Of a stretch of DNA of 64,000 bases, positions 4,849 to 31,110 are shown piece by piece. Position 1 is the stretch's first letter; each line of letters opens with the position of its first letter. This DNA comes from Psammoneis japonica (Eukaryota), in NCBI GenBank assembly GCA_008632985.1, contig QPGO01000270.1, forward strand, positions 1 to 64,000, given 5' to 3'. Position numbers and translations under genes: made by a program. The notes under the pieces were generated by a model that had not been told where the DNA came from, made no database searches, and was given only the letters and a program-made list of their open reading frames with translations.

Positions 4849-5142
4849 AGAGAAACACGTAGTTGTGTAAAGAAAATAAGGACACATGTATTGCTAACAA
4901 CAGAACAAATAGGACTTAATTCAGCATTAGTAGAGAAATACGCTTGATGCGTTTCGTAGCCTCTTGTGTTAAATGGGCGACACCAACTACAGCAAGGACG
5001 TGCAAGGTCAAAAACGAAACAAAGACTTGATGGATGACAAAGGAGGAAACCGATGACGGTGCAACAGCAAAGCCCTTACAATGGCTCTGAGACCAAGCAC
5101 CTGCACTGTGTTCAGAAAAAAAAACAGGTGCATGACACTGCA

Positions 5143-5903
5143 TCTTCCCCTTCCAATGATGATTTGATCAAGTGAGAATCATGTTGGTCAAGAATTCCAA
5201 ATTCAACTTTCAAAATGGAGCAGGAAGGAGAAAAAGAAAACCCAGGCACTGGGGGGAAAACCCTCAACCTCAAGTCCAACAGAGTGCCAAATGTTGACAT
5301 GTTCCATGATGCGTGGCTCTCATTGAACTGTGACAGTGCCATTGTTGGTGCGCGCACTTGGGCTGTCTGATGTGAACCACATGAGCTCTTGGCTCCAAGA
5401 ACTTGATGGGATTGACAATTGACTTGATTGGTGCTTGACCACCACGTGCAAAAATCACAGGATTGTTGCTTGGCATTGGCTCAAGAAAGGCTGGAACATG
5501 GATCAGAGCAAGCCTGGCAATGTTCTTGGAAAGCAGCCAGATCCATGATCACATCATGGAAAACATCACACTGGCAGAGTGTTGGAGAGTGCAGCTGCTC
5601 TTGGAATGACCTTGAGAGCATGGGAGCTGCACATTGCATGGTGTGCACAGCAGTGGCTTGTGCATCATCCACTGGTTTGCTTGCTTGCTCAACATTCTGT
5701 GGTGGAGGACAAACATGGGGCAATCTTTGTGATGACAATTTGATGCACTTGTCTGCCTGGTGACACATTGGCCCACTGAGGATTTCATGAGATGACAGGT
5801 GTGCTGTGTCAGTGCCAGCTCTCTGCAAAAGGAGTTGAACTTTTTCACCAGTGAGCTCTCTGCCATTGTCATGTGTCATGAATGCAGCAATTGGGGCAAG
5901 GAT
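5143..5903 (-). mobile_element. Ty3/Gypsy remnant, 3' part (integrase C-terminus plus PPT)
   Basis: THDNGRELTG integrase core, VDDAQATAVHTM; purine tract ggaaggggaaga (5143-5154, minus strand) followed by TG. Confidence 0.7.
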
Positions 5904-6179
5904 TGACAGGATTTGAACAGGATTTAGGTGCGCGCGAAATGTCGCGCGCTGTTCAGTTTACCGCGCACAGTTTTGTGTGCTTTAGTTCCGCGCGTTCGCG
6001 CGCGATGCAGTTTGCTTTCGAGCCACAAGGCTCACAAGAATAACAACAGTAGCCCGATTGTACCGACTTGCACGTCTTTCGGCTCCTGTGACGGTCTCTG
6101 AGCGGAAACTCATCTGCCATTTAGACAGCAGCAAGGAGTTGTTGTTTGAATTCTTGCCATTTGCCTTCAATTTCTGTCA
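5904..6179 (+). repeat. 5' LTR of Copia element 1
   Basis: tgacagg...ctgtca; direct repeat of 12681-12956. Confidence 0.95.
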
Positions 6180-7055
6180 GATTGACAGTCTTGCTCATTG
6201 TCAACCCATTGAGCAAGCCACCTCAATTCTGCGTGGACCTCCGTGTGTGTTCTACGTACATCGGCAAGTCTGCGCGCTTTCAATGCCAGGGCATCGGCAG
6301 GAAGTTAACGTCACCGTCAAGTCTCCTTGCCGCTGGATGTCTGGATTGATTGTGCTGCCTTTGATCGCTGAAGACATGCATTCAACGGTCACATCCAAGT
6401 CTGTCCTTGATCCACATCCCTTGACATGCCCATTCAACGGTTGACGGTCAAGAACCCTGCACATTCAAGGACCTCCGTCGCTGAAGACACACACACACAC
6501 ACATCTTCACGGCCAAGGACTTGGACCCACTCTTTGGACTGCGGCTTTGCCACCACTCTACAAGCACGCCGAGTCTGTTGCACCTGATCTACCCCGGACT
6601 GCTGGTGCTCTGCAGTTCTGCCAGGTCCACGAGGACGACTGTGAGAGCAAGCAGCCGTGATTGCAGCCTGCGTTGGGGCGAGGGTGTTTTCCCGCGTTTG
6701 TTCATTCGTCCACAGCGCCTGACGCCTGCGTCAACTGGCCAGCCTGATCGGGAAATCCAACCGACATAAAACAAGAACGGTTCGGGGGTCTTGTCCACCT
6801 CCAGTCAGCTTGCCTGCAGGGGTTTGCAACCCGCTGCTCTGCTCGCAAGCAACCCAAAGCGCCGCTGGCTGCGGGTTCGGACGTGCCGGCACAACTCTAC
6901 GGACCGGATAGGAAGTTTGGCACTTGACAACGAATGGGACAGCACAGCCCAGCGACTTCTGATTTTAAGGTGGTTCAAGACATCAAGTCAAGTCCATCTC
7001 AAGTCAAGTCTGTTCTCACCCAAGTTTCAAGTCTGCCTTCGCTTCCCAACAAGAA

Positions 7056-10000
7056 TTGCTTGTCCTGACACCACTTTTGTCTGCCATGGTTCTCACTCGT
7101 CAGCAACAAACCGATGGTTTCGAGCACGTTGTTGGAACCGTGCTTGTCCAAGGTGCTGGGAGCCCTCTTCGTTTGGCTTTGACCCAAGACGGCACGGACT
7201 CGCATCAAGAACTGTTCACGTTCATGCCGTCCCAAATCGACTCGCTTGAGTGCGACAACGGCACCAATGTGATCCCTTTGCCCCGCGGTTATAAGAACAT
7301 GTTAGCAGCTCCAATCAGTCTGCACATTGTCAAAGCACACGAAGGTCTTGACGTTGCCAATGACTCCTCGTTGTTCACGCATGACGAGTTCCTTGCCTGC
7401 CGCCTCAGCCCCGACCACATGTCTTCTGTGTCTGTCGGCAGCTCACCCCTCGCACCTCCGCATGTCACCAACCCGACCAAGGCACGCGACCCGGTGCGAG
7501 ACTTCAAGCGAGGCATCAAGCGTGACCCCACCGCTTTCACGGCTCTCAAATCCGACAAGCAGTGGCACACTTGGCACACCTCACTTGTGGCACAAGCCCG
7601 TGCCCAAGACGTCGAGTGCATTCTAGACTCGTCGTACAAACCGACCAGCCCCGAAGACAAACTGCTCTTTGCTGAACAGCAAAAGCACATGTTCTTCTCA
7701 CCGACAAGGGCAAGGCTCTCATTCGCGAAAATGTGGGGTCTTCTGATGCCCAGACCGTCTGCCGCGCCTTGTCTGAGCATGCGCTCGCCTCCACCCGCGC
7801 CTCCATCGAGTCCTCCACCTTGCTCACGTACCTTGCCACCGCACGTCTTGGTGATGGCACTTGGAAAGGTCCGACCCACGGGTTCATCCTTCATTGGCAA
7901 GATCAGTTGCACAAGTGCAAGGCACTCATCCCGGCCAGTGACCACTTCTCTGAAGGACAGAAGCGCGTCATGCTCGAGAATGCCGTGCACCCTGTCGAGG
8001 AACTCCGTGCTGTCAAGAACCAAGCTGATCAGCATCGTACGCAGAGTGGCAAGAGCCTCACATGCGATCAACACTGTGGCTTGCTCCTCTCCGCGGCGGC
8101 TCAATGCGACAGTGCGTTTCAACCCAAGACGACACCTCGAGCTCCCCGACGTGCCATGTGCACACACGACGTCTGCTCCGAGGAACCGTCCGACGATGTG
8201 TTCCACGACATTGACAGCGACATTGACGTCCTTCAGGCCAATGCTGCCCACACCCATGGTCCCAGCCTCACCGGTGACCAATGGAAACGTCTCCCTCCCG
8301 ACCACCAACGGATTTGGGATTCGTTGCCCCATTCCTCCAAGGCGATCATCCTTGAGCATTCTCGTCCGCCTCCCGCAACCCGCGAGCCAGCAACTGCCAT
8401 GAGTCCGTTACGGCCAACCTTCACGACCAACGCCTTGGGAGTGACGGTGATGTCAACTTGTCCAACACGACTCCTGCTGACTCTGGTGACCCCGCTCCAA
8501 ATGTGGACGCCACTTCAGATGATCCCATCCTGGTGCACCTCACCAAGCACAAGCCACTGCCACCCGGTGATCTGCAACGTCTGTTGTCTCCTAACCAAGC
8601 CCCCAATGCCAGTCGCACGGGGCCATCCGCCGCTCCCTCTGCTCCGCCAGCTCCCACCAATGACATGGAACTTAACGGCCGCACTTGCCGCCGCATTGAC
8701 AACCACAATGTCATCCACTCTGCCTCTGCTCATCGCTCCACACGCACTGGTGCTCCAGTCGATCGTGGGGCCAACGGCGGCATTGCTGGCAACGACGTTC
8801 GCGTCATTGCACGCACCTCTCGCCACGTCGACGTTCAGGGCATTGACGACCATCAATTGGTGGACATCCCCATTGTCACCACTGGTGCCGTCATTGAGAC
8901 CCAGCGTGGTCCCGTCATCGCCATCCTCCATCAGCACGCATGCACGGGAAAGGGCAAGACCATTCATTCCTGCGGCCAGCTCGAATGGCACAAACAGGAT
9001 GTCAAAGATCGCTCTGTAAAGGTGCCCAACGGCTTGCAATGTGTTGCCACTCCTGATGGCTGTGTCATCCCCATTGACATCAAGGGCGGCCTGCCTTGTG
9101 TTGCCATGCGACCTCACACTGATGCCGAATGGGACACCCTGCCCCATGTCATCCTCACCGGTGATGACACATGGGATCCTTCCGTCCTCGATCACTCTGT
9201 CACTGACAATGACCAGTGGTGCGACGCGATCTCTGACCCACAGGACGATCCCACTGCCAACCCATTTGACGAGTGCGGCAACCGCCGTCATCGTGTCGTT
9301 GTCAACGAGACCATCATGTCCGTTTCCTTGTCTGCCGATCACGCGTCCGCCCTCGATGATCACCTCATCCCGAACGACGACGTGTTCCACTGGTGTCACC
9401 CACATGCGATTGACCCCAAGGACGATGACGTTCCACCCCCGGAGCACACTGTGCAGCCCAAGGACCCCCCCTTCGTGTCTCTTCGGCCTCACTTTGGCTT
9501 CCCACCTGCCGATGCGGTCCATCGCACTTTTGACTGCACCACGCAGCACGTCCGCATGCCCGCCGGTGCACACCTTAGGAAGGCCTGCAAATCACCCAAC
9601 CCCACCCTTGATGTGCACCGCCGCAACGAGCCTGTCGCCACTGACACCGTTCATGCCGACACCCCGGCCGTCGACTCTGGTTGCACCAGCGCCCAACTGT
9701 TTGTTGGCACCGAGTCTGCCGTCACTGACGTCTGCGGCACCAAGACGGACAAAGAGTTTGTCAACACACTGGAGGATCAGATCCGTGAGCGTGGTGCCCC
9801 ATCCAAACTCATTGGCGACCGTGCTCAAGTTGAGATCAGCAACAAGGTGCTCGGGATTCTACGAGCCCTCTTCATCTCCAGCTGGCAAAGTGAGCCTCAC
9901 CAGCAACACCAAAACTTTGCCGAGCATCGACACCAGACTGTGACGCGCATGGCGAACACTGTCATGGATCGTTTTGGTTCGCCTGCCCACACATGGCTGC

Positions 10001-12733
10001 TGGCGCTCATGTGCGTGTGCTTCATGCTCAACCACACAGCGTCCCCACGTCTCCACTGGCGCACGCCCCTCGAGACTCTCACTGGCTCCACCCCGGACAT
10101 CAGCCCATTGCTTTGCTTTCACTGGTGGGAACCCATGTGCTTCCACCTCGATGACTCTGATTGGCCTTCCGAATCCCGTGAGTTGCGTGGACGCTTTGTT
10201 GGCATTGCTGAGCACGTCGGCCACCAGATGACCTTCAAGATTCTCTCTGACGAGACACAGAAGATCCTCTGCCGGTCCAACGTACGATCCGCTGCCACCG
10301 ATCCTGCCGTTCGAAACCTGCGTCTTGATCCTCCTGATGGGGAGCCACCTGAACCCATCATCAAATCTCGCCATGACGACAACCCCGTCGATTCTCCTGA
10401 TGGGGAGATCAGGACACCCAAGATGCCAGTTTTTGATCCGCAAGACATCATCGGACGCACCTTCCTCATGCAGCCACAAGAGGATGGACAACGCCACAGA
10501 GCTCGCATCGTCAAGGCCGTCGAAGACCACGAATGGAAAGTGAACGGCAATCCCGAGCTCACTGAGTTCGTCTGCTCTGTCAACAACGACGAATGCGAGG
10601 AAGTCCTTGCCTGCAACGACATCATGAATCACATTGAGCAAGAAGACGAAGACACCACTGTTTGGAAATTTCGACGCATCGTGTCACACGAAGGACCACT
10701 GAAGCCTCATGACCCAACCTGGAAAGGCTCAAGCTACAACATCATGCTTGAACGGGAAAGTGGGGAGATCACTTCCGAGCCTCTTGCCATCATCGCCAAG
10801 GACGACCCCGTCACCTGCGCCATCTATGCACGAGAGAACGGACTTCTCGACACTGATGGCTGGAAGCGGTTCCGCACCATCGCGAGGCCAGAAGAAGCCA
10901 TTTCGCATGGCCAACCAAGCCAAGCTTTGCTCCTTCCGCACTGCACCTCGCTACAAGCACGGATGCGAAATTCCCCGGAACTGCAAACACGCCATGTCAC
11001 CAGACGGAACGCAATGGCAACCGCAAATGGGGAGACGCAACTAATCTCGAGATGGACCAACTCGAGGAATACGAAGTCTTCCATGACTGCGGGCCCTTCG
11101 AGCCTTCCACTCCTCCTGTGGGACACAAGAAGATCCGAGTGCACCTGGTGCACGACGTGAAACACGACGGTCGCCACAAGGCACGACTCGCAGCCGATGG
11201 GCACCTCACGGACGTGCCCATCGACAGTGTCTGCTCCGGAGCAGTCTCCCTCCGTGGCCTTCGGCTGATGATTTTCCTGGCCAAACTCAACGAGTTGGAG
11301 ACATGGGCCACCGACATTGGCAATGCCTGCCTTGAAGCCACCACCAAGGAGAAGCTCTACATTGCAGCCGGACCCGAATTTGGCAAACTTGAAGGACACA
11401 TCCTTGTCATCCACAAGGCCCTGCATGGACTGCGCAGCTCCGGTCTCCGCTGGCACGAGCGTTTCACCAACTGCCTGCGAGCTGAAGGCTTCTCCCCCTG
11501 CCGCGCCGAACCCGACATTTGGATGCGCAGGAACGGCGACCACTGTGAACACATTGCCGTTCATGTGGATGACCTCGCCATTGCCACGAAGGACCCTCAA
11601 TCTTTCATCGACACTCTCACGGAAAAGTGCAAGTTCAAGCTCAAGGGTGCGGGACCCATTGAGTTCCATCTGGGTTGCGACTTTTCCCGGGATCCCGACG
11701 GCACCTTGTGTCTGTCTCCACGCAAGTGCATCGAGCGCATGGTCGACAGCTGCACCCGACTGTTTGGGGAGAAACCTGCCACCAACGCCCTGTCACCACT
11801 GGAGAAGGGTGACCACCCCGAGCTGGACACTTCCGAACTGCTGGGGCCCAATGGCATTCACAAGTTCCAGTCTCTTGTTGGTTCACTCCAATGGGCAGTG
11901 TCCCTTGGTCGAATTGACATTGCCACGGCCGTCATGTCACTCTCTAGCTTCCAAGCTGCGCCCCGTCAAGGCCACTTGGATCGTGCCAAACGCGTCTGTG
12001 GGTGCCTCTCCAAGATGCGACACGGCGCTCTCCGCGTTCACACGGAAGAGCCCGACCATTTGGATCTCCCTGCTCCGGCCCATGAATGGATGCATTCCGT
12101 GTGCGGCGAAGCAGAAGAGATGATCCCGAAGGATGCTCCACCGCCCCTTGGCAAGTTCGTCACTGCCACCCACTGTGTCGATGCAAACTTGCACCATTGC
12201 ATGCTCACCGGACGCTCTGTCATGGGAATGCTCCACTTCCTCAACAAATTCCGGCTGATTGGTTCTCTAAGAAGCAAGCCACCATGGAGACTGCGACCTG
12301 CGGGTCTGAATTTGTTGCCGCAAGGACTTGTGTCGAGCAGATTGTCGACCTGCGCATCACCCTGCGCTGCCTTGGCGTCCCGATCTGTGGTGTCAGTTGC
12401 ATGTTCGGTGACAACAAGTCGGTTGTAGACAGTGCCACCATCCCGCACTCCAAGTTACACAAGCGACACACCGCACTGTCGTTCCACCGTGTGCGTGAGG
12501 CAATTGCCTCTGGTTGCCTTGAGCTCCACTTCATCGAAGGCTCCCGCAACCCTGCTGACATTCTCAGCAAGCATTGGGGTCACTCCCAAATCTGGGACCT
12601 TCTCCGCCCCCTCATGTTCTGGAACTTCATTCCATCCGAAGTCGAATCTGTTTCTGTGGCTCCTCAAGCAAACTGGGGAGTGACAGGATTTGAACAGGAT
12701 TTGGGTGCACGCGAAATGTCGCGCGCTGTTTAG
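7056..12733 (+). pseudogene. Copia gag-pol (frameshifted, hypermutated)
   Basis: FKRGIKRDP gag; protease VDRGANGG; integrase LIGDRAQVE and SEPHQQHQNFAE; RT HVDD (from YVDD); RNase H ETATCGSEF and NPADILSK. Confidence 0.93.
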
Positions 12734-12956
12734 TTTGCCACGCACAGTTTTGTGTGCTTTGGTTCTGCGCGTTCGCGCGCAATGCAGTTTGCTTTCGAGC
12801 CACAAGGCTCACAAGAATGATGACAGCAGCCCGATTGTGCCGACTTGCACGTCTTTCGGCTCCTGTGACGGTCTCTGAGCGGAGACTCATCTGCTGTTTA
12901 GACACCAGTGAGGAGTTGTTGTTTGAATTCTTGCCATTTGCCTTCAATTTCTGTCA
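12681..12956 (+). repeat. 3' LTR of Copia element 1
   Basis: Direct repeat of 5904-6179, preceded by the PPT. Confidence 0.95.
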
Positions 12957-12961
12957 AGGAT

Positions 12962-14950
12962 GACAAGACATCTGGCAATTTTGGAGCTGTTGAGAGATGC
13001 CGTGCTGCACGGTCTTGTTCTCAATGCAAGCAAGTTCAGCAACATTTGATGCTGCTGTGTCAACACATTTCAATGCATCAAACTCAATCTCTTGACCCAA
13101 ACATTCAATTTTCTGAGGTCCAACCAAATCAACAGCAACTTCACACCATCACAGCAGAGATGACATTTTGCATTCAGGCAAGCCCCCACAGCAGCAAGGG
13201 CCCACCAAAGCTTTCAAATGCTGACAACCAGCATGTGAAAAGTCTTGACAATGTCATTGCAATGCAGGATTTCAAAACATGTGCTGACAGCAGAGAGCTC
13301 AGTCAATGCACTGGGCATGTCCCAAAAGTGCAATGGCGCCACTGCATGATGTTAGACAACAAATCAGCACGGGAATGCAAATCTTCCACAGGGTTGGCGG
13401 ATCACCCAGTCAATGACAAAAGCAAATCACAGGGGTTGCTGATTCACACATTTGACAATGAAATGATCCATGCACTGCCTTTGCATGTTTTGCAGTTCCC
13501 TGTCAACAATTTGATGTGCTCTTTGAGTTGCTGAGTGTTTGCATGTGACTTGCTGACTGGCGTCCTGTCAAGAGCTGGGCAGTTTGGGAGAGTTTCAAAC
13601 ATGTCTCAGGATTGTTGACAAAAGAAGGTCAGAAGTTGGGGGGTTCTTCATGTTGACATGAAAAACAAGATGCAGCACTTGGCTTGTCAAGTTCATGGTG
13701 TCCTTTTTGTGTGCTGGCGGTGCTCTCACATTGACCACCTTGAAGTTTGTTGGCTTGCCTTTGTTTGGAGGAGCACACTGTCCTTCCACAGGGAGAAAAA
13801 CTCAATCCAGCACATGCAGTTGAGAAAAGCAGTCAGCAAGTGCACCATCCACACTCTGAGGTTGGAGCAAAATTTTCCAAAAAATGGTTGTTGCCTTCTG
13901 AGTGCACATTGCACAACAATGGTCAACAGCTCCCTTTCAGCAGTCAAGCAGCTCTGCTGCCCAGCACTGAGTTTGTGTGTGAGGCTGCCAGGCAGTTGGC
14001 TTTCCCTCTTGTTGCATCATTGCTGCACCCATCAGGCTTGTTGTGTGATTGGGACAGGTCAAAAAGATGTCATTCAACATCAGATTCTTCACCTTGTCAA
14101 AAGCCCTTTGACACTTGGGTGTCCACTCCAGCTTCCTCTTACCTGCCATCTTTCTGAGGGGAGCAAGAACATGAGTTGTGCATGTCCACACATTGTGGCA
14201 ACAAGTTGTTGCACTGGCAAACAACTGCAAATGCATCATGATGATCTGAGGCCGCAGCTGCACTCACAGCACAGCTTCCACTTGTTTCTTTCACAGCATG
14301 ACTCCCATTGAGCTGGCCACATGAACAAGTTTCAGAAGGCATGAGAAGAACAGAATCTCAGCCCATGCAATGGCATTGACTTTAGACCCTTTTTTGCCAT
14401 TTCAACAACACAAATGACTGGAGCACTTCCATCAGTCAATGCCATGGAAGAAATGTGCATGGCAACAGAAAAGAGCTTGCCCTTGGAGGCCAGTTGTGAG
14501 CCAAATGAGACTCTTGTTGTTGCTGATGGGCTGGTCTTCTTGTGCTGCATTGCAGCCTGTGACAAGCATTTTCATCATTGATGCTGATGACACAAAGTGC
14601 GCAAAATGCTGCAGTCCTCTTCATGTCATTCAATTTTCCACAAGGTCAAAAAAAGCAGGCTTTCATGGTCACTGAATGCCACAGCCATTTTGGCTGTCAG
14701 CTGGCTTGAGTTTTGTCCATTCATTTTGCTTGCAACTGGCCATTGACATGAGGGGACTGCATTTGGCAAAGGTGTCAAGCCCCAAGATGATGGGATTGAT
14801 TCAACAAAATCAAAGGTTGTGTGTGTTGTGCACCAAAATGAAAAAAACAAACAAACAAATGTGTTGGGAACAGACAGAGAGCACGCATCATGCCCACTCT
14901 GGCTGGCCACCAGCAGAGTGAGCCACGAACACAGCAAATGGCATTTTTCA
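12962..14950 (-). mobile_element. Ty3/Gypsy remnant, RT/RNase H/integrase N-terminal part, continuous with 5143-5903
   Basis: HVLAPLRKMAGKRKLEWTPKCQRAFDKVK; TAERELLTIV; NVAELACIENKT...SCHP leads toward the HDNG motif across the Copia insertion; upstream limit approximate. Confidence 0.75.
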
Positions 14951-15188
14951 GCAGGTGAGTTGGCAGATGGATGCAGTCAGGAATTCTCAACTCAATGAAT
15001 CAAAGGAGGTTGGTGAGACAAATTCGGAGAAAGGTGGTGCTGAAGATGATGATGCTGGCAGAGTCACAACAAATCACAGGCAAAACAACCAGTTTGGTGA
15101 GAGGGGGGAAACAGCAAAAGAAGTGAGTGGGTTGGCTGGCTCCCAAACAACAGTTGGTTCCAACAGCATCAGCGTGTGCTGAATCTTT

Positions 15189-15550
15189 TCAAGGGAAACT
15201 TGTTGTCTCCCAATCCATCACTGGAATCAGCAACAGTTGCTTCAGCACAATCGCTTTGGAGTCTCTGTGTGGCAGGCCACTGGGCTGCAAGCAAATCCAG
15301 TGCAAGCAGCCCAGTCTTCTCTGGGGAGACTTGTTGTCACCCAATCCAAGCCCAGGAATCAGCAACAGATTTTCTGGCACAGTTGCTTTGGAGCCTCTGC
15401 ATGGCAAGCCACCAGATTGCAAGCAAATTCAGTGCAAGCAGCCCAGTTTTTTCAAGGGAGACTTGTTGTCACCCAATCCAAGACCTGGTGTTAGCTGCAG
15501 TTGTTCCAACACAGTTGCTTTGGAGCCTCTGCATGGGCCACCAGACTGCA
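15189..15550. repeat. Tandem repeat, ~130-bp unit x ~2.8
   Basis: 'acttgttgtc.cccaatcca' at ~15199, 15329 and 15461. Confidence 0.85.
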
Positions 15551-16995
15551 ATGCTGCAGCAGTCCTGAGCTTGATGTTGCCTGACAATGGGCCCACATGT
15601 TGTGCACTTGTGATGCAGACATGCTCAAGGACATCCTCCATGAGTTGAGTTGATGGTTGCATCACACAGCGGCCATGGTGAAGCACGCACCTCTGAGGAG
15701 CTTTCCACCTGGACATGGCAAAGCATGGCATCACCCAGGCGGGACTTGCCAACATGCTGGAGCATCATTGGCAAGGTTGATGGAAAGACACAAAGTGACC
15801 CATGACAGCTGTGATTCCAGCACCTGCTTTCATCAAGTTCAAGCTGCCAGTGTTCGGGACTCCACTGTTGCAACACACACACCACAGAAGCAATGAAAAA
15901 AGAAGACCAGCAATTGCGCTGGTGAGCACAGCCAGAGAAACAAAGCTGGCTGAATTTGCAAGAACAACCCAGAGGACAATTGGCAGGCCAAAGAGATCAC
16001 AAACTGTCCAGTGGCGGCACAGGGCATGACATGGTGGCCAAACACACATTTGAGCCCAGCGCTTGCTTGTTTGAAGGGAAGAGGAGGGTCAATGAACAGC
16101 CCTCTCAGGTGGAAGGGAGCACTGTCAATGCACCATCTTAAGAAACACAAGGACGCCAAGATGTGCACCCTTCAATGGCTGCACCCAGATGTCGATCCTG
16201 GCTGTCATCAAACAATTGAATGGTCTGCAAAGCACCCCAGCTGCTTGTGCAACAACTGTCTTTAACTTGTGCCACTGGCAAAAAACATTGCAGCAAATAA
16301 AGCTGACAAGACTATGACAAAGCAGCCAAAAGTTTGGTGTTCTTTGTGCGGAGCCGCTTTGAAAGGCGGCAGCGGGCACCTTCTGCTCTGCTTTTTTTTC
16401 CGAACAAGCAGCTGACAGGAAAACTGGGCTGACTTTGGGCTGGAGCAACTTTTGACCAGGGTTGTCAACAAAAGCTTTGTGTCAAATGCCACACTCGTGC
16501 AGTGGCATGTTGTCACAAGTTGCACCACATCTGTCTGCTGGATGCAAGCAGAGCATCATGGTGTCCCGTGCTTTTTTTGCAAGATTTTGCACTGTGCTTT
16601 TCACTTTCTGGGAGATCTGGTGCTTTTGCCTCTTACAATTTAAAACGGAAAAGTCACACATCACCCATGAGGCGGATGGCATGGCCACAGCTGGGATCCC
16701 GGAGATGACCAGTGGATTTTGACTGCCTTGGCGAAGCGAAGCGTCTGAGGCAAGCCGAGTCGAATGACTCAATCCTCGTTTGAAATGCTGGAGGGATGGA
16801 AAATGACCCTTTTCTAGTCATTTTGGCATTTGCAACGAAATGACCGTCACCGTGGTCATTTTATTGACATTTCATTCTTCCCTCCACAAGAAAAGCCCAC
16901 AAGCTTGAGCTATCTATCACACTTCCTTTCTTTCGTTGTCGTCTTTCGAACGAATACTCTCAGAACCTCGTCTTTAGAGCCTCATCATAATATAG

Positions 16996-18918
16996 ATGCG
17001 AAAAGCAATGGCTGTAAAGTGTGCGGCAAGTTCAAGATCGCGCTGGGTCGCCCTGGTCCTGTTGACTCTTTTGTTTCAGGCATGTACGCGAATGCTCAAG
17101 TGGCACGAGCTCATCTTGAATGTTCGCTATTTTCACATTTTTCATCACGACGAAACCAGTGTGACTCAAGAATACAATGATACAGAGTACTGCGCTACAA
17201 AGGGCTCACTACATCAAATGTGCTTGGACATGATTGCTTATTCAAGTCCGCCCGGTTCGCCCTCTTTTACAAAGACATTACGTGTCTTGCACAGCGCAAC
17301 ACATTTCCAAATTGATTTAGGAGCAGCCTGGCTGTTTAATGACAATGAATCAAACATTGCAACAATGCTGAAAGGGTTCGGTCTGCACGCCATCAAAGAT
17401 CAGAACAAAAAGACGACGACTACTGACCCCTTTCTTCACGTCGAATCGGTCGTTTCAAAATCTATATGCGAGTCCCGTCAGGATTGCAGCCGTGTACCAA
17501 GGATTTTGGTTCAAACCGAGCAGCTCATTGAAAGAAAGGATGAGTTCCATGACAAACTCAAGTTGTGTCACGAGTCGGAGCTTTGCATTATTTGGGAGTT
17601 TTCGGATTTCAATTACCGCATTTTAAAAGACATCAAGCTTGCCGATTCGGTGGTGCTCATACCCATCATGATTCAGTCGAGGCTGGGAGACGCGGAAATA
17701 ATGCGTCCGCTTCAGAATCGATCTATAGACGTATCTTTCTTTGCGACAATGACGGAACGTCGGCAGCCTTTACGGGGTTTGATGAATGAAACCGGCTTGG
17801 AAACGCGGATTTCCCAAACGGACGATACGTCCGCCATGAAAAAGTCATATCAAGATTCCAAGGTTTGTTTAATCATGCACGCCTACAATGATCTTTCGTC
17901 GGGAGAGACGCATCGGCTTTCGGAGATGGGACGCTTTGGTTGCATTCCGGTTCTAGAAACGTGGGCGGATACCATGTTTGTTGAAAACTACAAGAGATGC
18001 GGCGACGTAGTATTCGCAGGAAAAGATGATATTTTGAATGCAAGTCGAGCCGCTGTCAAAAAAGTCAGTCACGAAGACCCCGAAGAGATGGATAAGTCAC
18101 TCCGAAAGCGAGTTGAATGGTGGCGTACTGGAATTGATTGGGCAAGGGTGTTGAACACAGCCTTTCGTGCAGCTCCAGGTCATACCAAGGCGCGGTCAAC
18201 GAAAGCCCCGTTTGTGACGTTTATCATTCCGACCAAGTTTAGAGATACATTGAATCAAACAATCGCATCTCTCACACGTCAAACCAGTAACAGTTGGGAG
18301 GCAATACTGGGAATCGACGTGCAAAACATTGATTCCGACCATGTACTCGAGTCCTTTGGATACGACCCAAGATTATCCTACATGTTGGTGGGCTCGGTCG
18401 GCACCAGTCGTGGTAAAAAGCTGAATGGTGCCGGTGAGATTCGAAACAAAATGGTAAGGAAAGCCAAGGGAGAATGGGTGGCCTTTTTGGATGATGATGA
18501 TACGGTCAGTCCACATTACGTCGAATGGCTACAAAACTCTGTATTAAGGGACGAACAGATTTTCAACAAAAAAGTCGATTTGGTCTTGTTTCGAATGAAA
18601 TGTGTTCGAAGCACTACCGACATTGACATTTTACCACCTTGGCAGCACAGAAATCGTGCTAAACTCGATTGGGTGGGGATTAGCTTTGCCGTTCGAAAGC
18701 GTTTATTTACGTCCAAGAAATTGGCGTTTGAAACAAGCAATGCCGAAGACTACGATTTCTTAAAAGCCGCCTATCAGAAGCAACAAAAGGGCATTATCCA
18801 ACGCGTTAAAATCGCCGACTGCGTTGCTTATTTTGTCAAGGAAAACCCACCACCGTCGTTGGAACAGATACGCTATCAACCTGAATTCTGCAATTTGACG
18901 GACCTAATTGTTGAGTAA
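16996..18918 (+). CDS. Glycosyltransferase with C-terminal GT2 (GT-A) domain and N-terminal second GT-like domain
   Basis: N-terminal hydrophobic anchor; VTFIIPT...TIASL...GAGEIRN...GEWVAFLDDDD...AEDYDF; intact 640-aa ORF with normal TA content. Confidence 0.8.
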   Translation: MRKAMAVKCAASSRSRWVALVLLTLLFQACTRMLKWHELILNVRYFHIFHHDETSVTQEYNDTEYCATKGSLHQMCLDMIAYSSPPGSPSFTKTLRVLHSATHFQIDLGAAWLFNDNESNIATMLKGFGLHAIKDQNKKTTTTDPFLHVESVVSKSICESRQDCSRVPRILVQTEQLIERKDEFHDKLKLCHESELCIIWEFSDFNYRILKDIKLADSVVLIPIMIQSRLGDAEIMRPLQNRSIDVSFFATMTERRQPLRGLMNETGLETRISQTDDTSAMKKSYQDSKVCLIMHAYNDLSSGETHRLSEMGRFGCIPVLETWADTMFVENYKRCGDVVFAGKDDILNASRAAVKKVSHEDPEEMDKSLRKRVEWWRTGIDWARVLNTAFRAAPGHTKARSTKAPFVTFIIPTKFRDTLNQTIASLTRQTSNSWEAILGIDVQNIDSDHVLESFGYDPRLSYMLVGSVGTSRGKKLNGAGEIRNKMVRKAKGEWVAFLDDDDTVSPHYVEWLQNSVLRDEQIFNKKVDLVLFRMKCVRSTTDIDILPPWQHRNRAKLDWVGISFAVRKRLFTSKKLAFETSNAEDYDFLKAAYQKQQKGIIQRVKIADCVAYFVKENPPPSLEQIRYQPEFCNLTDLIVE

Positions 18919-19320
18919 CTCTTCCGTATACTACTAAAGGTAGAGTAACTTCATTGGGGAGGGTAACAATGTTATAGTCGTGCCATTGGCATATGCATTA
19001 GCCAACCTATTGCTGTCTTTGTGGGCTGCAACACTTGTTGTGTATCTGACAGTTAGCAACCTTGTTGAGGGTGGCATTGCTAGTACTTTTGCATACGCAA
19101 CAGAATATCACATGTCCCAACATTGAATAGTTTGAAACTAATGGTTCACTTGCTTTCTTCCTTAGTATAGAGGAATAAAGATCTCTATAGAGAGAGATCC
19201 ATATCTCGACTTCTCGGATCACGCGATCTAATAGCTACGGCATATATTCGTAGTATAGCATGCAAACGGAATAGATGATACATTATTTCGAAACGACAAA
19301 AATCAAGACACGTCTCGGGA

Positions 19321-19542
19321 TTGGCGGTACAGACTGGCAAGACTACTAGTGAAGTGTCCATTTCCACGTCGGTCCGGGAAGGGTTCATTTTTATTATTTT
19401 GAATTGCATTACCATTTTGGTGGTGGGCATCGGCTTTGGCAAGGGGCGCATCAACCCGTGCCATGGGTACATTGCGGTTGGATTGTGTGCAATCTATCTT
19501 GGAACTTCGATTACTCTGCATTACACGACAAATTCGGACTGA
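19321..19542 (+). pseudogene. Possible C-terminal fragment of a Ca2+/cation exchanger-like membrane protein
   Basis: Two TM-like helices FIFIILNCITILVVGIGFGKGRI...GYIAVGLCAIYL; no upstream part seen. Confidence 0.3.
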
Positions 19543-19969
19543 TCGAAACAAACTGCTATCAATATACATATGATTTAAAAAATGACAGCATTTTTGCGCA
19601 TAGTTTTGGCTCTTTGTTGCAAACTTGAAATGATAAAGAAAATAATGTACATCGGGTGCTAGCGGTGGAGATAACATCAAAACCCATCTGCATGGAGAAA
19701 TAAACATTGGCATTGTGGCCAACTTCTCAGGAAACAAGCCATCATGTTGGTGTTGCGATGTGTTACTTGACTCCTCTTTCATTTTCCTTCGATGCTGCTT
19801 TTGTAATGCTGCAAGTCAATTGCAAGTTACAAGAGCCGTTCTGATCGTTTCAGATTAGTTCCACAGTCCAAAGAGTCCTGTCCACACTTCAGGAAAAGTA
19901 CTTCTGCGCTGCTCGGAGCGTTTCAGCTTGCATCGACTGCTTCACGAAGGCAAAAATTATCTGGTATTT

Positions 19970-20657
19970 CTAATGCAGAAACTCAGAAAGCCACTTGAAT
20001 CCATCAGCGTAACCCGCTTTTCGGATGACCGAACACATGAACAACTTCATTGGGCCACTTCCAATCCCGCTGTGTTGGATCCTTCTTGCCCAGAGACCAT
20101 GACGTTGTCTAATCCCAGAGCATATTTCACTTCTTCCTCACTTGCAGCATTAGGCATATCAATCTTGTTTCCAAGAACCAAAAATGGAACATCTTGTAAT
20201 TCTTCACTTTTCAAAAGCGCATCTAGTTCTTTCTTTGCCTCGGCGAAACGACTTCTGTCCATTGCGTCCACAACATAGACAACACCATCGACCGTCGTAA
20301 AGTAATCGGCCCACAATCTTCGAGCTGTTTCGTGCCCTCCCAAATCAAAAGTTTTCATTCGAACGTTCCTAATGATCAATGGTGGTGCGCCGGGATGCAA
20401 AGTTGGTGCATTGTCTTTCTCCATCTCTTCTTTTAGTGCGTGAATGAGAGTTGTTTTGCCGGCATGATCAAGGCCCAAAATAAGTATACTGGCGTTCTTG
20501 TAGTAGAGAGAACCTAGTTGGAAACGACAAAATGAGACCGAGTTCAGTGTCTTCGTAAAAGGCTCCACAATCCATGAGCATGATTATCTACTTTGCTTCT
20601 TACGTACTCACCCAGACTTCCCGATGAGCCATGCCACCAATTTAGAAGGAATTTCAT
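19970..20657 (-). CDS. SAR1: Sar1 small GTPase (divergent); intron 20514-20611; apparent 1-bp frameshift near 20068
   Basis: MKFLLNWW exon 1; [40 protein letters not shown]-terminus [23 protein letters not shown] in the shifted frame. Confidence 0.88.
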
Positions 20658-20878
20658 TGCAGTAAGTAGATTCTTGTTTTTTCGACTTATGCTGCCTATG
20701 AGGGATCATTTATCAAGCCCGTAGATTCCGGTAGCTTCTCATCTTTAACGTTTTAGCTGTAGCAATGAAGTTGCCGGTTGCCGCAGAGTCGGCAATCGAC
20801 CATCAGCTATGACACCGGTACGCAGGCAGTTCTCTATAACATGTAGGATTTATACTGGAACTTGTGTAGAATTTGATT

Positions 20879-20998
20879 AGGACGCAATTCCATTTTGACA
20901 AGGACAAGTGGAAGTCAACGACGAGGAATCCTCTTGACAAGGACGCAATTCCATTTTGATGAGGACAAGTAGAAGTCAATGACGAGGAATCCTCTTGA
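20879..20998. repeat. 61-bp tandem duplication
   Basis: aggacgcaattccattttga... at 20879 and 20940. Confidence 0.9.
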
Positions 20999-21849
20999 TT
21001 CTCTCCACTCAACGAGCAACGAGCCACGATGAGAAACCAATGCAGTAAAAACAACACATCATCAACATTGACTTTGACGATGACGCGGTCAGAAGAAGAT
21101 GCCAACCCTTCTGCGCCACAGCCTCCAACGCTGCAGCAAGTCACCGAGCAACAGCTGACAAATCCACAAGTGACAGCACCACAACAAATGATGGTGGCAA
21201 ATCCACATGTAAAGAGAGAGGCACAACGGAGGATGAGTTGACCATCATTCAAGACCTTGGAAGACATCGAGAGAGTCATGCCTGAGGAGCAAGCTGAGAA
21301 CTCTTTTGTCCAGAATGAAGAATGCCGTGCGATTCATTGCCAATGTCAGGTGTCATGGAAAGTGCACCTCAACTTCATCAGACACATCAAAAAAGGGTGC
21401 GTCAGCAACAAACCTGGCTTTGACTGCCACTGCATCCGAACCAAACCAACTGGTGTGGAAAGACAACTTCACACATTGTCTGGAGCAGAAGCCAGAAGTG
21501 GCCAGCATGGATGACAAGGCAGAGGGGGTCAGTTTGGGACTCGTGACATGCAGCAATCTTATGTTGAGATGCACCAAAATCCCAAAAAGAGTCAAACAAT
21601 GAGTGACAAGAGTGAGCTTTGTCTGGAAAAGGCCAATGGGATGCGCACTGTGATGAAAAAGCTCCATCATCTCCCCACCTCTCACTCGGCTTGTGGCATT
21701 TGGAGCAGCAACAAGAAAGAAAGCATCAATGTGCACAAGCATTGAAACATTGAAGATGGTGCTGGTGCTCAACAAAAAGCACTGACATTGAACAATGGCG
21801 CTGCCATGCTTCACTTGTGGCAATGTGATTTTGTCTCAAATGTTTGGTT

Positions 21850-22860
21850 GACTTTCGGCCGGGGATGCCAAACGCGATTGTTGTCATCATTGCAAGCACT
21901 GTGAACCCACACCCATTGCAAGTGTGTGTCACTCAAGATCTCAATGGCTCTGCATCCAAAATGCATGGCATCCCAAGCAGCAACCCATTCTTCTCCAGCT
22001 TGACATTCAGAGGGAGCCTTGGCTGCTTGGCCACCATCGCCCACCATGATGTGAGTGGGTCCCCTGGAATTCAACCCATCATTTACAACTGGGTGCATTT
22101 GAAAATGGGTGTGAACATGGCACAAGAGAATGACATTGACAAAGCTTCCAAGTGCTCCTTGGCTTTGAGCAGCTGAACATCTTTGTGGTGAACATGACAA
22201 GCATTGTGCATGGGAACGTGCATGGTCACAAAAAGAGCCACGGCATCAAGGTTCAGTTGACCAACCCAAGTTCCAACACCAGCCACTTGTGTTGATTAGA
22301 TCTGGGATTGAAGTTGGCACAAAAGTTGACGACAACATTGTGAGTTGGTCCACATGGACAAAGAAGCAAAAGGAGTTGCCAAAGTTGCACTCAAGTGGGC
22401 ATGGAATTGAATCCAAGCTCAATGCTGGAAATCAGTGGGGTCTGAAAACTTGCACAGCTTTGTTTCTGGTGCTTTAATCTTGGGCATGTAAAACCTGTTT
22501 TGGGTTGGACTGAATGGGGTTCATGATCCAGACAAGCTGGTTTGTCAAAACAAAAAGGTGCTGCAGCTTACATCCATGAACACATTGCTGTTTCGTCTCA
22601 CTTCAATGTCATGGTTGCCAGCTGCAATCTGCATTGGCGCTCTAAAAATGCCGGGAAAGTCTCCATGGCATCAAACCATTCATCCCAACTTTCTGGCCTT
22701 GACCTTGGACAGGCAATGTCACCAGCAAAAAGAGCTGCACCAGTCTCATCTTGCTGGCCAGATGGAGTCGCCATTGTGTCCTTGCCTCATTGTTGGTGAC
22801 CCAAGTCACCAAGAAATGCCAGTTTGAGAATGCCCTTGATGAGGCATGTTGAATCTGCTC
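21850..22860 (-). pseudogene. Purple acid phosphatase pseudogene (hypermutated)
   Basis: LAFLGDLG, FAGDIAC (GDIAY), WDEWFD, CNFGNSFC, CHVHTH (GHVHAY), GPTHIMVGDGG; stops and frameshifts. Confidence 0.75.
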
Positions 22861-24153
22861 TTTGTTGTGTCCCTGCGGCAGGCAAGAGGCGCACGACGTG
22901 TTCTAGCCAAACGTGACCCAAGTCATGCACAAAAACAACATTTGCGTGATTTTTGTGCAGTCTCTCACTTGCGAACAAGCTTTCACCACCAAAAGCATGG
23001 ATTTGTCCAAAATTGAATGTTTTGCAACACTGACAAGACTTGCGTCAGTGTTGCAACATCATTGTTTTTGTGCTGTCCATGTTTTTCATTGCGACAGACA
23101 AGCTGCAATGCAACAAACAAGCTGCAACACAACGGATGATTTTTGGCAAAAACATTGCCATCACTTGAATGTCAAATTGAACAATTTTTCTGCAAGAGCT
23201 TCTGGCAGGTGTTCTGCTCCCACAACCAAAAATCTGCATCCAATGTGCTGTCATGCAATCAGCATTGAGTGCACAGAGGGAGTTTGTGACACACATCCCA
23301 TGAGGATTTGAATGCCAACAAAAAAATCATTCAGATGTTCATGCTCTGGACACTTGCAAAAGCCCATCCGCCTGAGTGTTTTGCACACAAATGCTGCATG
23401 CATGAGAGATGTGCAATTTATGTTCAAAATGGGTTGTCATTTTGTGTGTCACCTGGGACTGGAACACGTGTTGCATGTGTGCTTTGACCTTGCTGCCCTC
23501 TCTCTCCCCCCTCCTCCTTTTCCTCTTCCTTTTTTCATGAACTTAGAGCTGCCTGCGTGACCGGACATGTGCCGCAGAGTCAGCGCGGTTGCAGAGTGTG
23601 TTTGTTTTTGAAGGTGGTCACGAGTGACTTGCCCCCAATTCAGTCACGAGTCATGTCACACAGATTTGCTTTGGAGTGCACATTTGATTTCTGAGATGAT
23701 TGTGATTCTTCCTTTGTTCTTGATGTTTCTCCTTGCTGGGTTCTTCCCTGCCAAATGAAATTTGCCAGCATCACTGGCTCACGAGCCATCCAACAGCAGA
23801 CACAATGAGTGGGAACCTTCTTTTGTTGCAAACTTGGAAAATGTTGCTGGACCACATGGTTTCCAAGGCGTTCGATGAGTCGCCAATCATTGAGGACATT
23901 CAAACAGACATCTTCAAGCACTGTGTTCTCCTTCTTTTTTGCTGTTGCACCCAGCCTTGGCATCACATGATTTGAAGTTGGTTTGTTGTCAACTGAGACA
24001 GGATTAATTCTGGGAAGAGACAACAAGAGTTCCTGGGCAGAGGAGTGGGCGTTGGGATCTGGCAGGGGCTGCCAAAGCCATTGCCCATGATGTGTGCATG
24101 CAGGCAGGCAGATTGGCACTGCAAGACATTGACAAAGACCTTTTTGAGCAGTG

Positions 24154-24549
24154 GGCATGTTCCAGCTCTGGGTGGGACCTCATGCTGCTGGACTGTGACA
24201 ATTGTTTTTTGTCATCCATTGCATGTTTTGCACGTGCATGTTTCCACGTCTTCCATTGTAAAAAATGCTCCACACTGCCTGTTTTGCAAAGCCAAAGGCT
24301 TTCTGTTTTCTGCATTTGTGACAATGAAAATGCACTGGGCACATGTTCTTGAATGTCTGAAGAACACACCCGGCCATGCTGTCAACAATGTGCTTCAAGT
24401 GTGGAGGAGGAGATGCGTTCGCAAAATTGCCTCTTTTTCTGTTGGCGATCATCCATGCTTTCATTGCTCAACAATTTTGGCATGGAGCACTCACGCAGAA
24501 TTCTGCAGCCCAATGTCACAAAAAGTCCCACCTGGGGCTGGAACCTGTC
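24154..24549 (+). mobile_element. MITE, older diverged subfamily
   Basis: Degenerate TIRs ggcatgttccag...ctggaacctgtc; 4-bp TSD AGTG on both sides. Confidence 0.8.
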
Positions 24550-25227
24550 AGTGCCTCACCACCAAAGACATGCCTGACCCCACATTGCTGGTCAGGGCAA
24601 GTGGAGAGAAAATGGTGCCTGATGTTCTTGTTTTTGTGTGCAATCGGGCATTGACTGCAAACAATTTTTGCACTGAAAAAAAACAAAGACTGCAAATGTC
24701 CTCATTCAAATGCCATGGCAGCTCCAGGACAAACAAGGAGATGACACCCTTTGATGTGAGCAGACTGTTTTTGGGGGCAATCAGAAGATGAATTTTTCAG
24801 AATTTTCTTTGCATTGAGGCATGAAAAAGAATGGATGTCATCTTTCTTGGCATTTTTCTCAGTTTCTGGCCATTTCAAAACAGCTGTTGGTGAGAGAGAC
24901 CATGGTGCATCACAGTTGGCTGGTGCAAAAAGATTGACAACAACCAGCTGTCCATTGAGATCCATCATGGTGCAACAATGTCTCATCCATGCTTTTGAAA
25001 ATCAACAAAATTGAGCGGGGGCATGTGTGCTGTCTCAAAAGGGGTGCTCAAAACAACTCTGCTCTGGCTGTTTTTGTGTTGCTGTTTGTTGCAACAGACC
25101 ACCAACACTCACTTTGCAGTCAACAGATGGCTGTGACAATGCTCCATCCAGCCACTTTGTTTCTCAAATGGCTTTGACAAGCTTTTTGCAATTTTGCAAT
25201 TTGTCACTTCAACAAATGCTCCAAGGT

Positions 25228-25960
25228 GTTGGGTGGTTGGCCAGTTGGAGCATCCGCTGGTGGCAAAATTGGCTCCCGTGTGGACAACACACAGATGGAA
25301 GGAAGGACAGCCACTCCCATCTGTTTGAGCATGGGTTTGAAATGAGCTCAATGAGCTGATTCCAGATCTGATCGCTGCTGGTTTGGAGCACCCGTCCATT
25401 GTGCTGCTGGGTTTTGCGCGCTGTCTCGCGACAAAGCACACCACATGTGCTGCATCGTGCAGCCAAGCTGCATTCACACCACAGGGCAAAAGAGAGCAAG
25501 ATGTTGCATTGTGACTGTTGCTTTGATGAAGAAGCAAAAAGTGCTCCAAACAAGAAGAGGCAACTGCCAAGTCAAGACCCAAGTGGGGAAGAGCCGCAAT
25601 CACCAACAGCTGTTTGCAACACCCAAGAGCTGCACATTGGCTGCATGGATCAGCTCCTCTTCTCTCTTGGAAACAAACATTCCATTTTTCCTTTTCCATG
25701 TCATGCATGGTGCGCTGTCAACAACGGAAATCAAAATGTCATTTTCTGCACTTGCCATGGGAAACTGGCAGAAGCAACAATGGCGCCGGGTGGTTGGCCG
25801 GTTGGAGTGTCCACAGGTGGCAAATTCAGCTCAGGTGCAGATGACACACAGACATGAGGAAGAATGGCTGTTCTGAGCCATTTGAGCATGGATTTGGAAT
25901 GAGCTCGATGAGCTGGTTACAGATCAGTTGACAATGGTTCGGAGCTCCCGTCCAATGCAT
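25228..25960. repeat. Two ~170-bp diverged direct repeats (25228-25405 and 25788-25960)
   Basis: Shared gggtggttggcc.gttggag... and tttgagcatgg.tttg.aatgagctc.atgagctg. Confidence 0.65.
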
Positions 25961-26265
25961 GGTTTGGTTTCCTGCGACATCATTCTCTAAAAACAATTTA
26001 GTCCAGGAGTGCATTTGTCTTACAACATGAGGTTCAAAATTGCACTTTGAATCCCCAAACCATGTTCCCCTGCAAGTGCTTGTGAAGGTTTCATTCTTCT
26101 TTCGTTGTTGCACTCGGCTTTTTGATGAAAATGCATCGACGATTGAAAATCTGGCTCGGCCAAGCTGAATCCTGGTGGTAGAATTCGTACTGAAGTCTAC
26201 GGTGCTCCAGAAATTGCGAGCGAACATTTGGCTACGTTTATTGCGATGTTTGCGTTAATTTTGCC

Positions 26266-30766: not shown

Positions 30767-31110
30767 AGCCCAAACAAGTGGGTTGCTTTGGTGAATTCAG
30801 AACATGTGTGCTGCCAACATTGCCCTTGACATTGCCACACCTGCAATTGCTGTTTTCAGGGGGCTCCAAAAAACCGCCTTGTGGACCCGAGTCCAGAGGA
30901 GTTCCTTCAGGTGGCTTGGGCTGATCCGACACATGTCACAAGAGAGCCCAAACAAGCAGGTTGCTTTGGTGAATTCAAAATGTGTGTCCCACTTATGTTG
31001 CAGTGCCCTCGACATTGCCACATCTGCAATTGTTGTTTTCAGGGGGCTCCAAAAAACCGCCTTGTGGACCTGAGTCTGGGAGGAGTTCCTTCTGGTGGCT
31101 TGGGCCAATC
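30767..31110. repeat. Tandem duplication, ~180-bp unit x2
   Basis: agcccaaacaag...ttttcagggggctccaaaaaaccgccttgtggacc at ~30767 and ~30945. Confidence 0.85.

Follow-up and report, generated by a model that had tools for sequence, protein, structure and literature searches.

Conversion of TpA to TpG and CpA in Copia retrotransposons and surrounding transposon-rich DNA of Psammoneis japonica

We analyzed a 64,000-nucleotide stretch of DNA from Psammoneis japonica (assembly GCA_008632985.1, contig QPGO01000270.1, positions 1 to 64,000), referred to below as the window. A dead Ty1/copia-type long terminal repeat (LTR) retrotransposon, designated element 1, lies at 5904-12956. A preliminary description of this DNA had noticed that conserved tyrosines of its Pol protein read Cys or His. 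We found that TpA dinucleotides of the element have been changed to TpG or CpA, with the polarity A:T to G:C. The conversion took place after integration, on DNA, and on both strands. It is regional: a second Copia lineage (element 2), a miniature inverted-repeat transposable element (MITE), and stretches that are now single copy have been hit, and the host genes between them have been spared. Taken as a whole, the pattern likely reflects a regional, post-integration conversion of transposon-rich DNA from TpA to TpG or CpA, of the type described for Bigelowiella natans.

Loss of conserved tyrosines from the two Copia elements

Element 1 is bounded by a perfect target site duplication (TSD) and two LTRs of equal length (Table 1). 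Its gag-pol region comprises six frame segments (7086-7691, 7694-8392, 8410-10902, 10880-11020, 11010-12248, and 12245-12637) with five frameshifts and no in-frame stop in 1857 codons. Pfam recognized the reverse transcriptase (RT) domain (RVT_2, E 2.1e-23) and gave no match to an integrase core in this element. The last pol frame remains open for about 30 codons beyond the end of the homologue alignment, into the 3' LTR (12637-12733), which would be consistent with removal of the native stop (TAA or TAG) by this conversion. Several alternating GCGCGCG runs are present in both LTRs (5990-6070 and 12765-12845).

We aligned the six translated segments with 71 homologues of 1800-2000 residues, taken from the best 120 of 1417 hits. 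The eight Pol motifs quoted in the preliminary description were all found in the translation at 11145-12583, and seven of them carry Tyr in 94-100% of the homologues. The eighth, LVHDVK, had been read as a former Tyr motif; the majority residue there is Phe (72%), mostly as LVFDVK. The catalytic motif of RT reads HVDD where 71 of 71 homologues read YVDD, and thus the active site is destroyed, as had been proposed.

At columns conserved at 90% or more, Tyr was replaced in 27 of 31 cases (17 Cys, 8 His, 1 Arg, and 1 Phe), against 40 of 533 for all non-Tyr residues (Fisher p 1e-23). When the threshold was lowered to 70%, element 1 had Cys at 23, His at 14, Tyr at 6, Phe at 3, Arg at 1, and Trp at 1 of 48 Tyr columns. 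The same columns in the 71 homologues hold 3123 Tyr, 226 Phe, 45 His, and 14 Cys among 3479 cells. Active relatives do not share the Cys and His residues of element 1, and the intact state is Tyr, confirming the polarity of the TAY to TGY or CAY change to which the tyrosine loss had been attributed.

Element 2, on the minus strand, shows the same pattern. Pfam placed gag_pre-integrs and zf-CCHC domains upstream of RVT_2, and its RT is only about 21-25% identical to that of element 1. Against 64 full-length homologues, Tyr was replaced in 9 of 9 columns conserved at 90% or more (7 Cys and 2 His), compared with 31 of 318 for non-Tyr residues (p 2.6e-9). At 70% or more, 19 of 20 Tyr columns were replaced; Cys or His stands at 16 of these 20 columns and at 37 of the 48 in element 1. 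The motifs KSLCGL and HVND, cited earlier for this element, were both found, and the homologues have Tyr there. Its named relatives are from Fragilaria, Cylindrotheca, and Mayamaea. A tblastn search of the window with 60 full-length Copia proteins gave matches only in these two elements.

The deficit is also visible in overall composition. The Tyr content of 240 database relatives of both elements is at least 1.97% (median 3.36%), and that of the two window elements is 0.43% and 0.31%. By tblastn, Cys or His accounts for a share of 0.70 of Tyr positions in the window (42/60), and for at most 0.10 (median 0.02) in metagenome loci of the relatives. Since every Tyr codon contains TA, a change of TA to TG or CA turns Tyr into Cys (TGY) or His (CAY). 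The same change cannot create a stop codon, and long open frames therefore remain, with no stops in 3790 codons of the two elements.

Nucleotide signature of the conversion

Element 1 has a TA observed/expected ratio (o/e) of 0.10-0.11, and element 2 one of 0.09. TA is the sole depleted A/T dinucleotide, as AA, AT, and TT have o/e values near 1. TG and CA are raised to 1.4-1.6 in the elements (element 1: TA 0.11, TG 1.57, and CA 1.37). Among 75 loci that carry relatives, TA o/e has a median of 0.81 (range 0.26-1.11) and GC content a median of 0.48, versus 0.57 here.

The lowest value in this range belongs to a metagenome contig of 3568 nt carrying a relative of element 1 (L006), which was considered as a second hypermutated copy. 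It was rejected, as it has 23 Tyr, 3 His, and no Cys at 30 positions. Because this locus is natively low in TA (o/e 0.26) yet keeps its tyrosines, low TA by itself does not prove hypermutation.

Residue differences at columns conserved at 70% or more were classed by codon, using the neighboring bases of the window itself. Single TA to TG or CA steps account for 54 of 154 differences in element 1 and 37 of 112 in element 2, and CpG to TpG or CpA steps for 20 of 154 and 22 of 112. Side effects had been anticipated from TA conversion (Ile to Val, Met, or Thr, Val to Ala, and Leu to Pro or Ser), and such changes are present at TA-containing codons and codon junctions. The TA-class changes in element 1 are I>V (4), T>A (3), V>A (2), L>P (2), N>D (2), I>M (1), S>G (1), and K>E (1); those in element 2 are T>A (5), L>P (4), I>V (3), V>A (3), I>M (2), L>S (1), M>V (1), N>D (1), and K>E (1).

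Two processes are thus superimposed, a dominant TpA-specific A:T to G:C conversion and ordinary CpG decay. Conversion of both bases of a TA to CG is rare, as Tyr to Arg was seen at 1 of 48 columns. CG o/e is 0.73-0.85 in the Copia elements despite the loss of TA, and 0.1-0.3 in the older TA-poor blocks of the window. The Copia elements and the MITE copies are TA-poor and have kept their CpG, indicating that TpA conversion runs ahead of CpG decay.

The survival of TA depends on its neighbors. It is 0 for ATAT, 0.02-0.07 for ATAC, ATAG, and ATAA, and highest, at 0.34-0.37, for CTAA and TTAA. Read per strand, a pyrimidine after the A favors conversion, although the preference is mild. Tyr to Cys outnumbers Tyr to His (35:18, p 0.027) in both elements whatever their orientation, which agrees with this preference. 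When the codon lists were sorted by preceding base, the Cys or His outcome showed only a trend.

Selection against UpA in transcripts was considered as a source of TA depletion and rejected. It would spare the catalytic Tyr, and it cannot explain the differences between LTRs or the conversion of non-coding DNA.

Conversion after integration and on both strands

The two LTRs of one insertion are identical upon integration. In 278 aligned bases, the LTRs of element 1 differ by TA/TG at five sites, TA/CA at two, CA/TG at three, CA/CG at three, and TG/CG at one; one other transition and two transversions make up the remainder. The LTRs of element 2 (473 aligned bases) differ by CA/TG at 15 sites, TG/CG at seven, CA/CG at one, and TA/TG at one, with seven other transitions and no transversions. 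A site that reads CA in one LTR and TG in the other implies an ancestral TA (or CG) that underwent separate conversions with different outcomes in the two LTRs. Because the LTRs of element 1 differ at TA, TG, and CA sites despite the perfect TSD, conversion occurred after integration, on DNA. Only three of 278 positions differ outside pyrimidine-purine (YpR) sites, yet about 80-90% of TA sites have been lost; the TpA conversion rate would thus be on the order of 100 times background, a rough estimate from the LTR comparison.

Both strands are affected, the sense strand carrying 35 A to G (Tyr to Cys) and 18 T to C (Tyr to His) changes. These do not form strand-coherent tracts: along the element, we counted 22 runs against 18.4 ± 2.8 expected. 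Such a random order indicates many independent hits on two strands and not one processive pass along a single strand.

The MITE provides a reference for the ancestral state. It is roughly 400 bp long, has 12-bp terminal inverted repeats, and occurs in five copies in the window, one of which is unconverted (Table 1). The 24 TA sites of this copy read TG in 36, CA in 20, TA in 20, and another dinucleotide in 3 of 79 cells in the other four copies. CpG counts are unchanged across the copies (17-25). As one copy is unconverted, membership in a repeat family would by itself be no trigger of conversion; the state of that copy may reflect either insertion age or local chromatin.

One MITE copy (53732-54127) sits between the integrase and RT segments of element 2 and is about half converted, with 11 TA in 53501-54000 against 0-3 in neighboring bins. 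The graded series of element 2 (almost fully converted), the MITE inserted in it (half), and the copy at 33.8 kb (none) suggests a continuing process and not a single burst. A TA-normal island of about 600 bp (33454-34066; 32 TA per 500 bp) lies within a TA-poor block and starts about 350 bp upstream of the unconverted MITE. It is either a young insertion or a locally protected patch.

Retroelements pass through RNA and single-stranded cDNA, and both intermediates could be edited before integration, the RNA by an ADAR-like enzyme with a 5' U preference or the cDNA by an APOBEC-style deaminase. ADAR editing is merely biased towards the U-A context, whereas the conversion seen here is confined to TA. 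The sense strand carries A to G and T to C changes side by side, and the LTRs of a single insertion differ at converted sites. Furthermore, the MITE, the single-copy flanks of element 1, and a host-gene fragment were converted as well. The preference of ADAR-type enzymes for U before the edited A is noted in the Discussion of the preprint on B. natans (10.64898/2026.01.13.699255). Editing of RNA or cDNA before integration is excluded as the main cause, and we consider it very improbable as an account of the pattern.

Regional limits and support from sequencing reads

TA-poor blocks make up 44.5 of the 64 kb (about 70%) and hold 4.88 TA per kb at a GC content of 0.51, whereas the TA-normal blocks (19.5 kb) hold 40.97 TA per kb at a GC content of 0.46. 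With a TA o/e of 0.02-0.11 across about 70% of the window, the conversion is near saturation. Block edges are defined within about 100 bp. At the edge upstream of element 1, dense TA ends at 4988, with the following sites at 5077 and 5925; this edge (4988/5077) is at least 140 bp beyond the stop codon of a host FAD/NAD oxidoreductase gene.

Outside the Copia elements, the TA-poor blocks have a CpG o/e of 0.1-0.3 and TG/CA values of about 1.7-2.1. The flanks of element 1 (5001-5898 and 12962-16500) are likewise depleted of CpG and are single copy. The stretch 12953-16377 is TA-poor and single copy at 90% likeness or more, and may be an old diverged repeat.

A Pfam scan covered 86 of the 99 open reading frames (ORFs) of at least 130 aa; the other 13 lie inside element 1 (6969-12730), and five of them were scanned separately. 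The host genes recognized, encoding an acyltransferase, an oxidoreductase, a GT2 glycosyltransferase, SAR1, and a GNAT acetyltransferase, lie in TA-normal blocks. The sole exception is a phosphatase fragment within a TA-poor block, and in these ORFs Pfam gave no other match in the blocks poor in both TA and CpG. The best named matches of SAR1 are from the diatoms Craspedostauros (77%) and Skeletonema (75%), followed by other ochrophytes, with none above 78%.

The phosphatase fragment (21814-22245, minus strand) matches Metallophos_C (E 1.2e-7), and its catalytic domain was not detected. His or Cys stands where we take the family motifs to have Tyr. The fragment may be a hypermutated relic of a host gene. 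A Pfam scan of 26 of the 54 listed minus-strand ORFs at 20.8-26.3 kb revealed nothing beyond it.

We then compared the window with Logan k-mer contigs of a public sequencing run (X1). Depth over the single-copy flanks of element 1 is about 50-65, and a single contig of 3426 nt (depth about 62) spans 12953-16377 with four differences. Over element 1 itself, summed depths reach 5e4-2e5, and 12,557 contigs show a likeness of 90% or more, which places element 1 in a very abundant family. Summed contig depth over the element (5802-13179) is about 1000-3000 times that of the single-copy flanks, a depth that is not a copy number.

Relative to the window, the copies in this run differ by A>G at 85, C>T at 89, G>A at 82, and T>C at 70 places. 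There are thus 326 transition places against 58 transversion places, and CA/TG double differences are frequent. Some copies are free of the frameshifts of the window copy. At the block edge described above, a second contig covers 4845-5042 at a depth of 22.5 versus about 50. It has three differences, all A/T to G/C and one of them at TA, and may represent an allele.

The reads also bear on a sequencing or assembly artefact, of which consistent base-calling errors at a methylated TA motif would be an example. The public runs share a single sample and study, which may have been the source of the assembly. However, contigs assembled separately from run X1 match the TA-poor single-copy flank with only four differences in 3426 nt and include thousands of element variants. 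TA is normal in the interleaved host genes, and miscalls would not give a consistent TG in one copy and CA in another. We regard an artefact as the least probable of the explanations considered here.

Comparison with known systems

The only report of the same signature that we found is the B. natans preprint (Mettrop et al., bioRxiv 10.64898/2026.01.13.699255). In mutation-accumulation lines of B. natans, 231 of 302 nuclear mutations fell in two viral regions, one an integrated nucleocytoplasmic large DNA virus (NCLDV) and the other a virophage. With one exception (230 of 231), these were A>G or T>C changes, each of them at TpA. The TpA rate was about 6e-7 per site per generation (about 1e-7 to 1e-6), in only some lines; RT and DDE domains were enriched among TpA-poor coding sequences, and a homologue of ADAT2 was put forward as the possible adenine deaminase.

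That system and the window share near-exclusive A>G and T>C changes at TpA, delimited regions of invading DNA, and a loss of TpA with a gain of CpA and TpG. They differ in host, which is a rhizarian there and here a stramenopile, diatom-like by its SAR1 and transposon relatives. They also differ in targets, which are integrated viruses there, and LTR retrotransposons, a MITE, and old repeat relics here. TA o/e is 0.45 in the NCLDV region of B. natans, with 124 clusters in a 95-Mb genome, whereas values of 0.02-0.11 extend over about 70% of the window. The evidence there is direct, from de novo mutations, whereas ours consists of historical footprints.

The words diatom, stramenopile, retrotransposon, and LTR are absent from the preprint (10.64898/2026.01.13.699255). 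We found no report of the TpA signature from a diatom or stramenopile in the literature covered, which leaves out most subscription journals and includes term look-ups in PMC2806351 and 10.1101/2025.10.24.684338. The window thus adds a new lineage, new classes of target, and near saturation.

Repeat-induced point mutation (RIP) of Neurospora and other fungi also acts after integration, on DNA, by dinucleotide-specific transitions on two strands. Its sharply limited action is confined to mobile or repeated DNA and leaves transposons inactive. RIP changes C:G to T:A at CpA, which gives rise to TpA, a high AT content, and stop codons. Here the polarity is opposite: TpA is destroyed, GC is raised (0.51 vs 0.46), and stops cannot arise. 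Moreover, an unconverted member of the MITE family and converted single-copy DNA would not readily fit a simple duplication trigger. The family of element 1, for its part, has very many copies. The process is RIP-like in its working but lies outside the RIP family, as it fails the defining chemistry of RIP.

Deamination of 5-methylcytosine at methylated CpG also drives YpR sites to TG and CA, in the same blocks. However, it cannot turn TAY into Cys or His codons, and it is the slower process here, as the Copia and MITE copies keep CpG. A CpG-methylated LTR retrotransposon has been described in a diatom (Maumus et al. 2009, PMC2806351). APOBEC3 (G>A) and ADAR (A>G) resemble the present case in their deaminase-style, context-dependent hypermutation that inactivates mobile elements. 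Unlike the conversion seen here, which affects both strands after integration and extends to DNA that is not derived from retroelements, they act before integration, on cDNA or RNA, and on one strand.

Proposed mechanism

The footprints can be accommodated in the following scheme. Once element 1 had integrated, its genomic TpA was converted to TpG or CpA (A:T to G:C, either strand) at about nine in ten sites. Most likely, an enzyme deaminates the adenine of 5'-TA-3' on either strand within silenced, transposon-rich domains. Hypoxanthine would pair with C, so that TG replaces TA on the strand under attack and CA appears on its complement, and repeated rounds would erase nearly all TpA. Targeting would probably depend on silent, methylated chromatin rather than on pairwise homology. 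The catalytic Tyr of YVDD was lost together with the other tyrosines and RT was inactivated, and the presumed role is genome defence. More tentatively, and as a proposal that we would hold open rather than favor, diatom-like stramenopiles and chlorarachniophytes may share a dedicated defence mirroring RIP, in which a regional DNA adenine deaminase, possibly derived from ADAT/TadA, erases TpA at 100 times background or more in silenced mobile DNA.

A passive origin is the main competitor to such an enzyme. In silent methylated DNA, T:A to C:G changes at TpA might be raised by a modification linked to chromatin or by biased repair, and the chemistry might be an oxidised or hydroxymethylated thymine at TpA that mispairs with G. 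TpA is self-complementary, so T>C and A>G leave the same footprint and the attacked base is not distinguishable. The TA-poor blocks are also CpG-decayed and probably methylated, and conversion looks gradual and age-dependent (element 2, then its MITE, then the 33.8-kb copy). Dinoflagellates carry hydroxymethyluracil in place of thymine in their DNA, with a preference for TpA and TpC. A thymine modification with that preference would give a TpC component, which is not seen here; the preference in the window is for a pyrimidine after A. In B. natans, the events came in bursts and in only 11 of 15 lines, which suggests regulated activity (10.64898/2026.01.13.699255). We consider such a passive by-product unlikely.

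Several points weigh against a regional, post-integration conversion carried out by a dedicated enzyme. The chemistry and the targeting, and likewise the defensive role, are what we infer and not what we observe. Only the LTR and copy-to-copy differences prove later events, and the remaining changes may include inheritance from a master copy. One MITE copy is unconverted and four are converted. Neither a TA step nor a CpG step accounts for 80 of the 154 residue differences in element 1 and 53 of the 112 in element 2; these are expected from lineage divergence, the nearest relative being 70% identical, and add noise. The 35:18 excess of Tyr to Cys is weak, and preferences for sequence context and for the transcribed strand would give the same bias. 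Finally, the four public runs represent one sample and one study, possibly the source of the assembly, so that the read comparison is independent of the assembler but not of the sample.

To our knowledge, RIP-like mutational defence was known before the 2026 preprint only as C>T, and essentially only in fungi. TpA hypermutation is thus not a peculiarity of a single species, nor is it confined to viruses, as it affects ordinary transposons in a diatom-like host, to saturation. Diatoms contribute heavily to primary production and include genetically tractable species, so that the enzyme and the targeting rule could become testable. In practice, converted elements keep long stop-free frames, which gene callers will report as intact genes; inflated LTR divergence makes insertion dates too old; and GC and dinucleotide content turn mosaic. 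If a shared defence exists, it would strip mobile DNA of its Tyr codons, AT-rich promoter elements, and TAA/TAG stops, leaving GC-enriched "ghost" ORFs. Its occurrence in two branches of SAR (stramenopiles, alveolates, and rhizarians) would point to a possible ancient origin and wide distribution among marine protists, and to a possible bias in gene prediction and transposon dating in their genomes.

Other features of the window

The positions of the features discussed above and of the neighboring blocks and genes are given in Table 1.

Table 1 Features of the 64,000-nucleotide window.
Feature	Position	Strand	Remarks
TSD of element 1, left copy	5899-5903		AGGAT; the same 5 bases adjoin both LTRs
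5' LTR, element 1	5904-6179	+	276 bp, TG...CA ends; 7 TA remaining
gag-pol, element 1	7086-12637	+	by tblastn colinearity with homologues of 1850-1940 residues; RVT_2
Pol stretch flagged in the preliminary description	8458-12733	+	pol part of element 1; most of the Tyr to Cys/His replacements
RT catalytic motif HVDD	11562-11573	+	YVDD in homologues
3' LTR, element 1	12681-12956	+	276 bp, TG...CA ends; 2 TA remaining
TSD of element 1, right copy	12957-12961		AGGAT; directly after the 3' LTR; perfect 5-bp TSD
TA-poor block with element 1	5001-16500		0-7 TA per 500 bp versus 15-35 in neighboring blocks
TA-normal block	16501-21000		host genes for GT2 glycosyltransferase and SAR1 GTPase
GT2 glycosyltransferase	16996-18915	+	in TA-normal block
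SAR1 GTPase	20050-20583	-	in TA-normal block
TA-poor and CpG-poor block	21001-26000		contains purple-acid-phosphatase C-terminal fragment
MITE, unconverted	33807-34112	+	24 TA in 306 nt; reference for the ancestral state
MITE, converted	35026-35297	+	6 TA
Largest TA-poor and CpG-poor block without a recognizable protein	39501-46000		TA o/e 0.04-0.05, CG 0.13-0.21, TG/CA 1.7-2.1
Copia element 2	50334-58547	-	RVT_2 by Pfam; LTRs at about 50334-50806 and about 58074-58547
gag-pol, element 2	57521-55758, 55572-54130, 53771-53085, 52860-50956	-	four segments; 0 stops in 1933 codons
MITE in element 2 pol	53732-54127	+	12 TA remaining; less converted than its host element
MITE, converted, 5'-truncated	ends at 61132		7 TA
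MITE, converted	63194-63592	+	5 TA

Short tandem or near-tandem repeats occur at 1301-1854 (unit about 183-189 bp), 15223-15486 (about 132 bp), 20873-20994 (about 61 bp), and 30746-31076 (about 178-183 bp). Copies of these repeats within TA-poor blocks differ from one another by CA/TG-type transitions.

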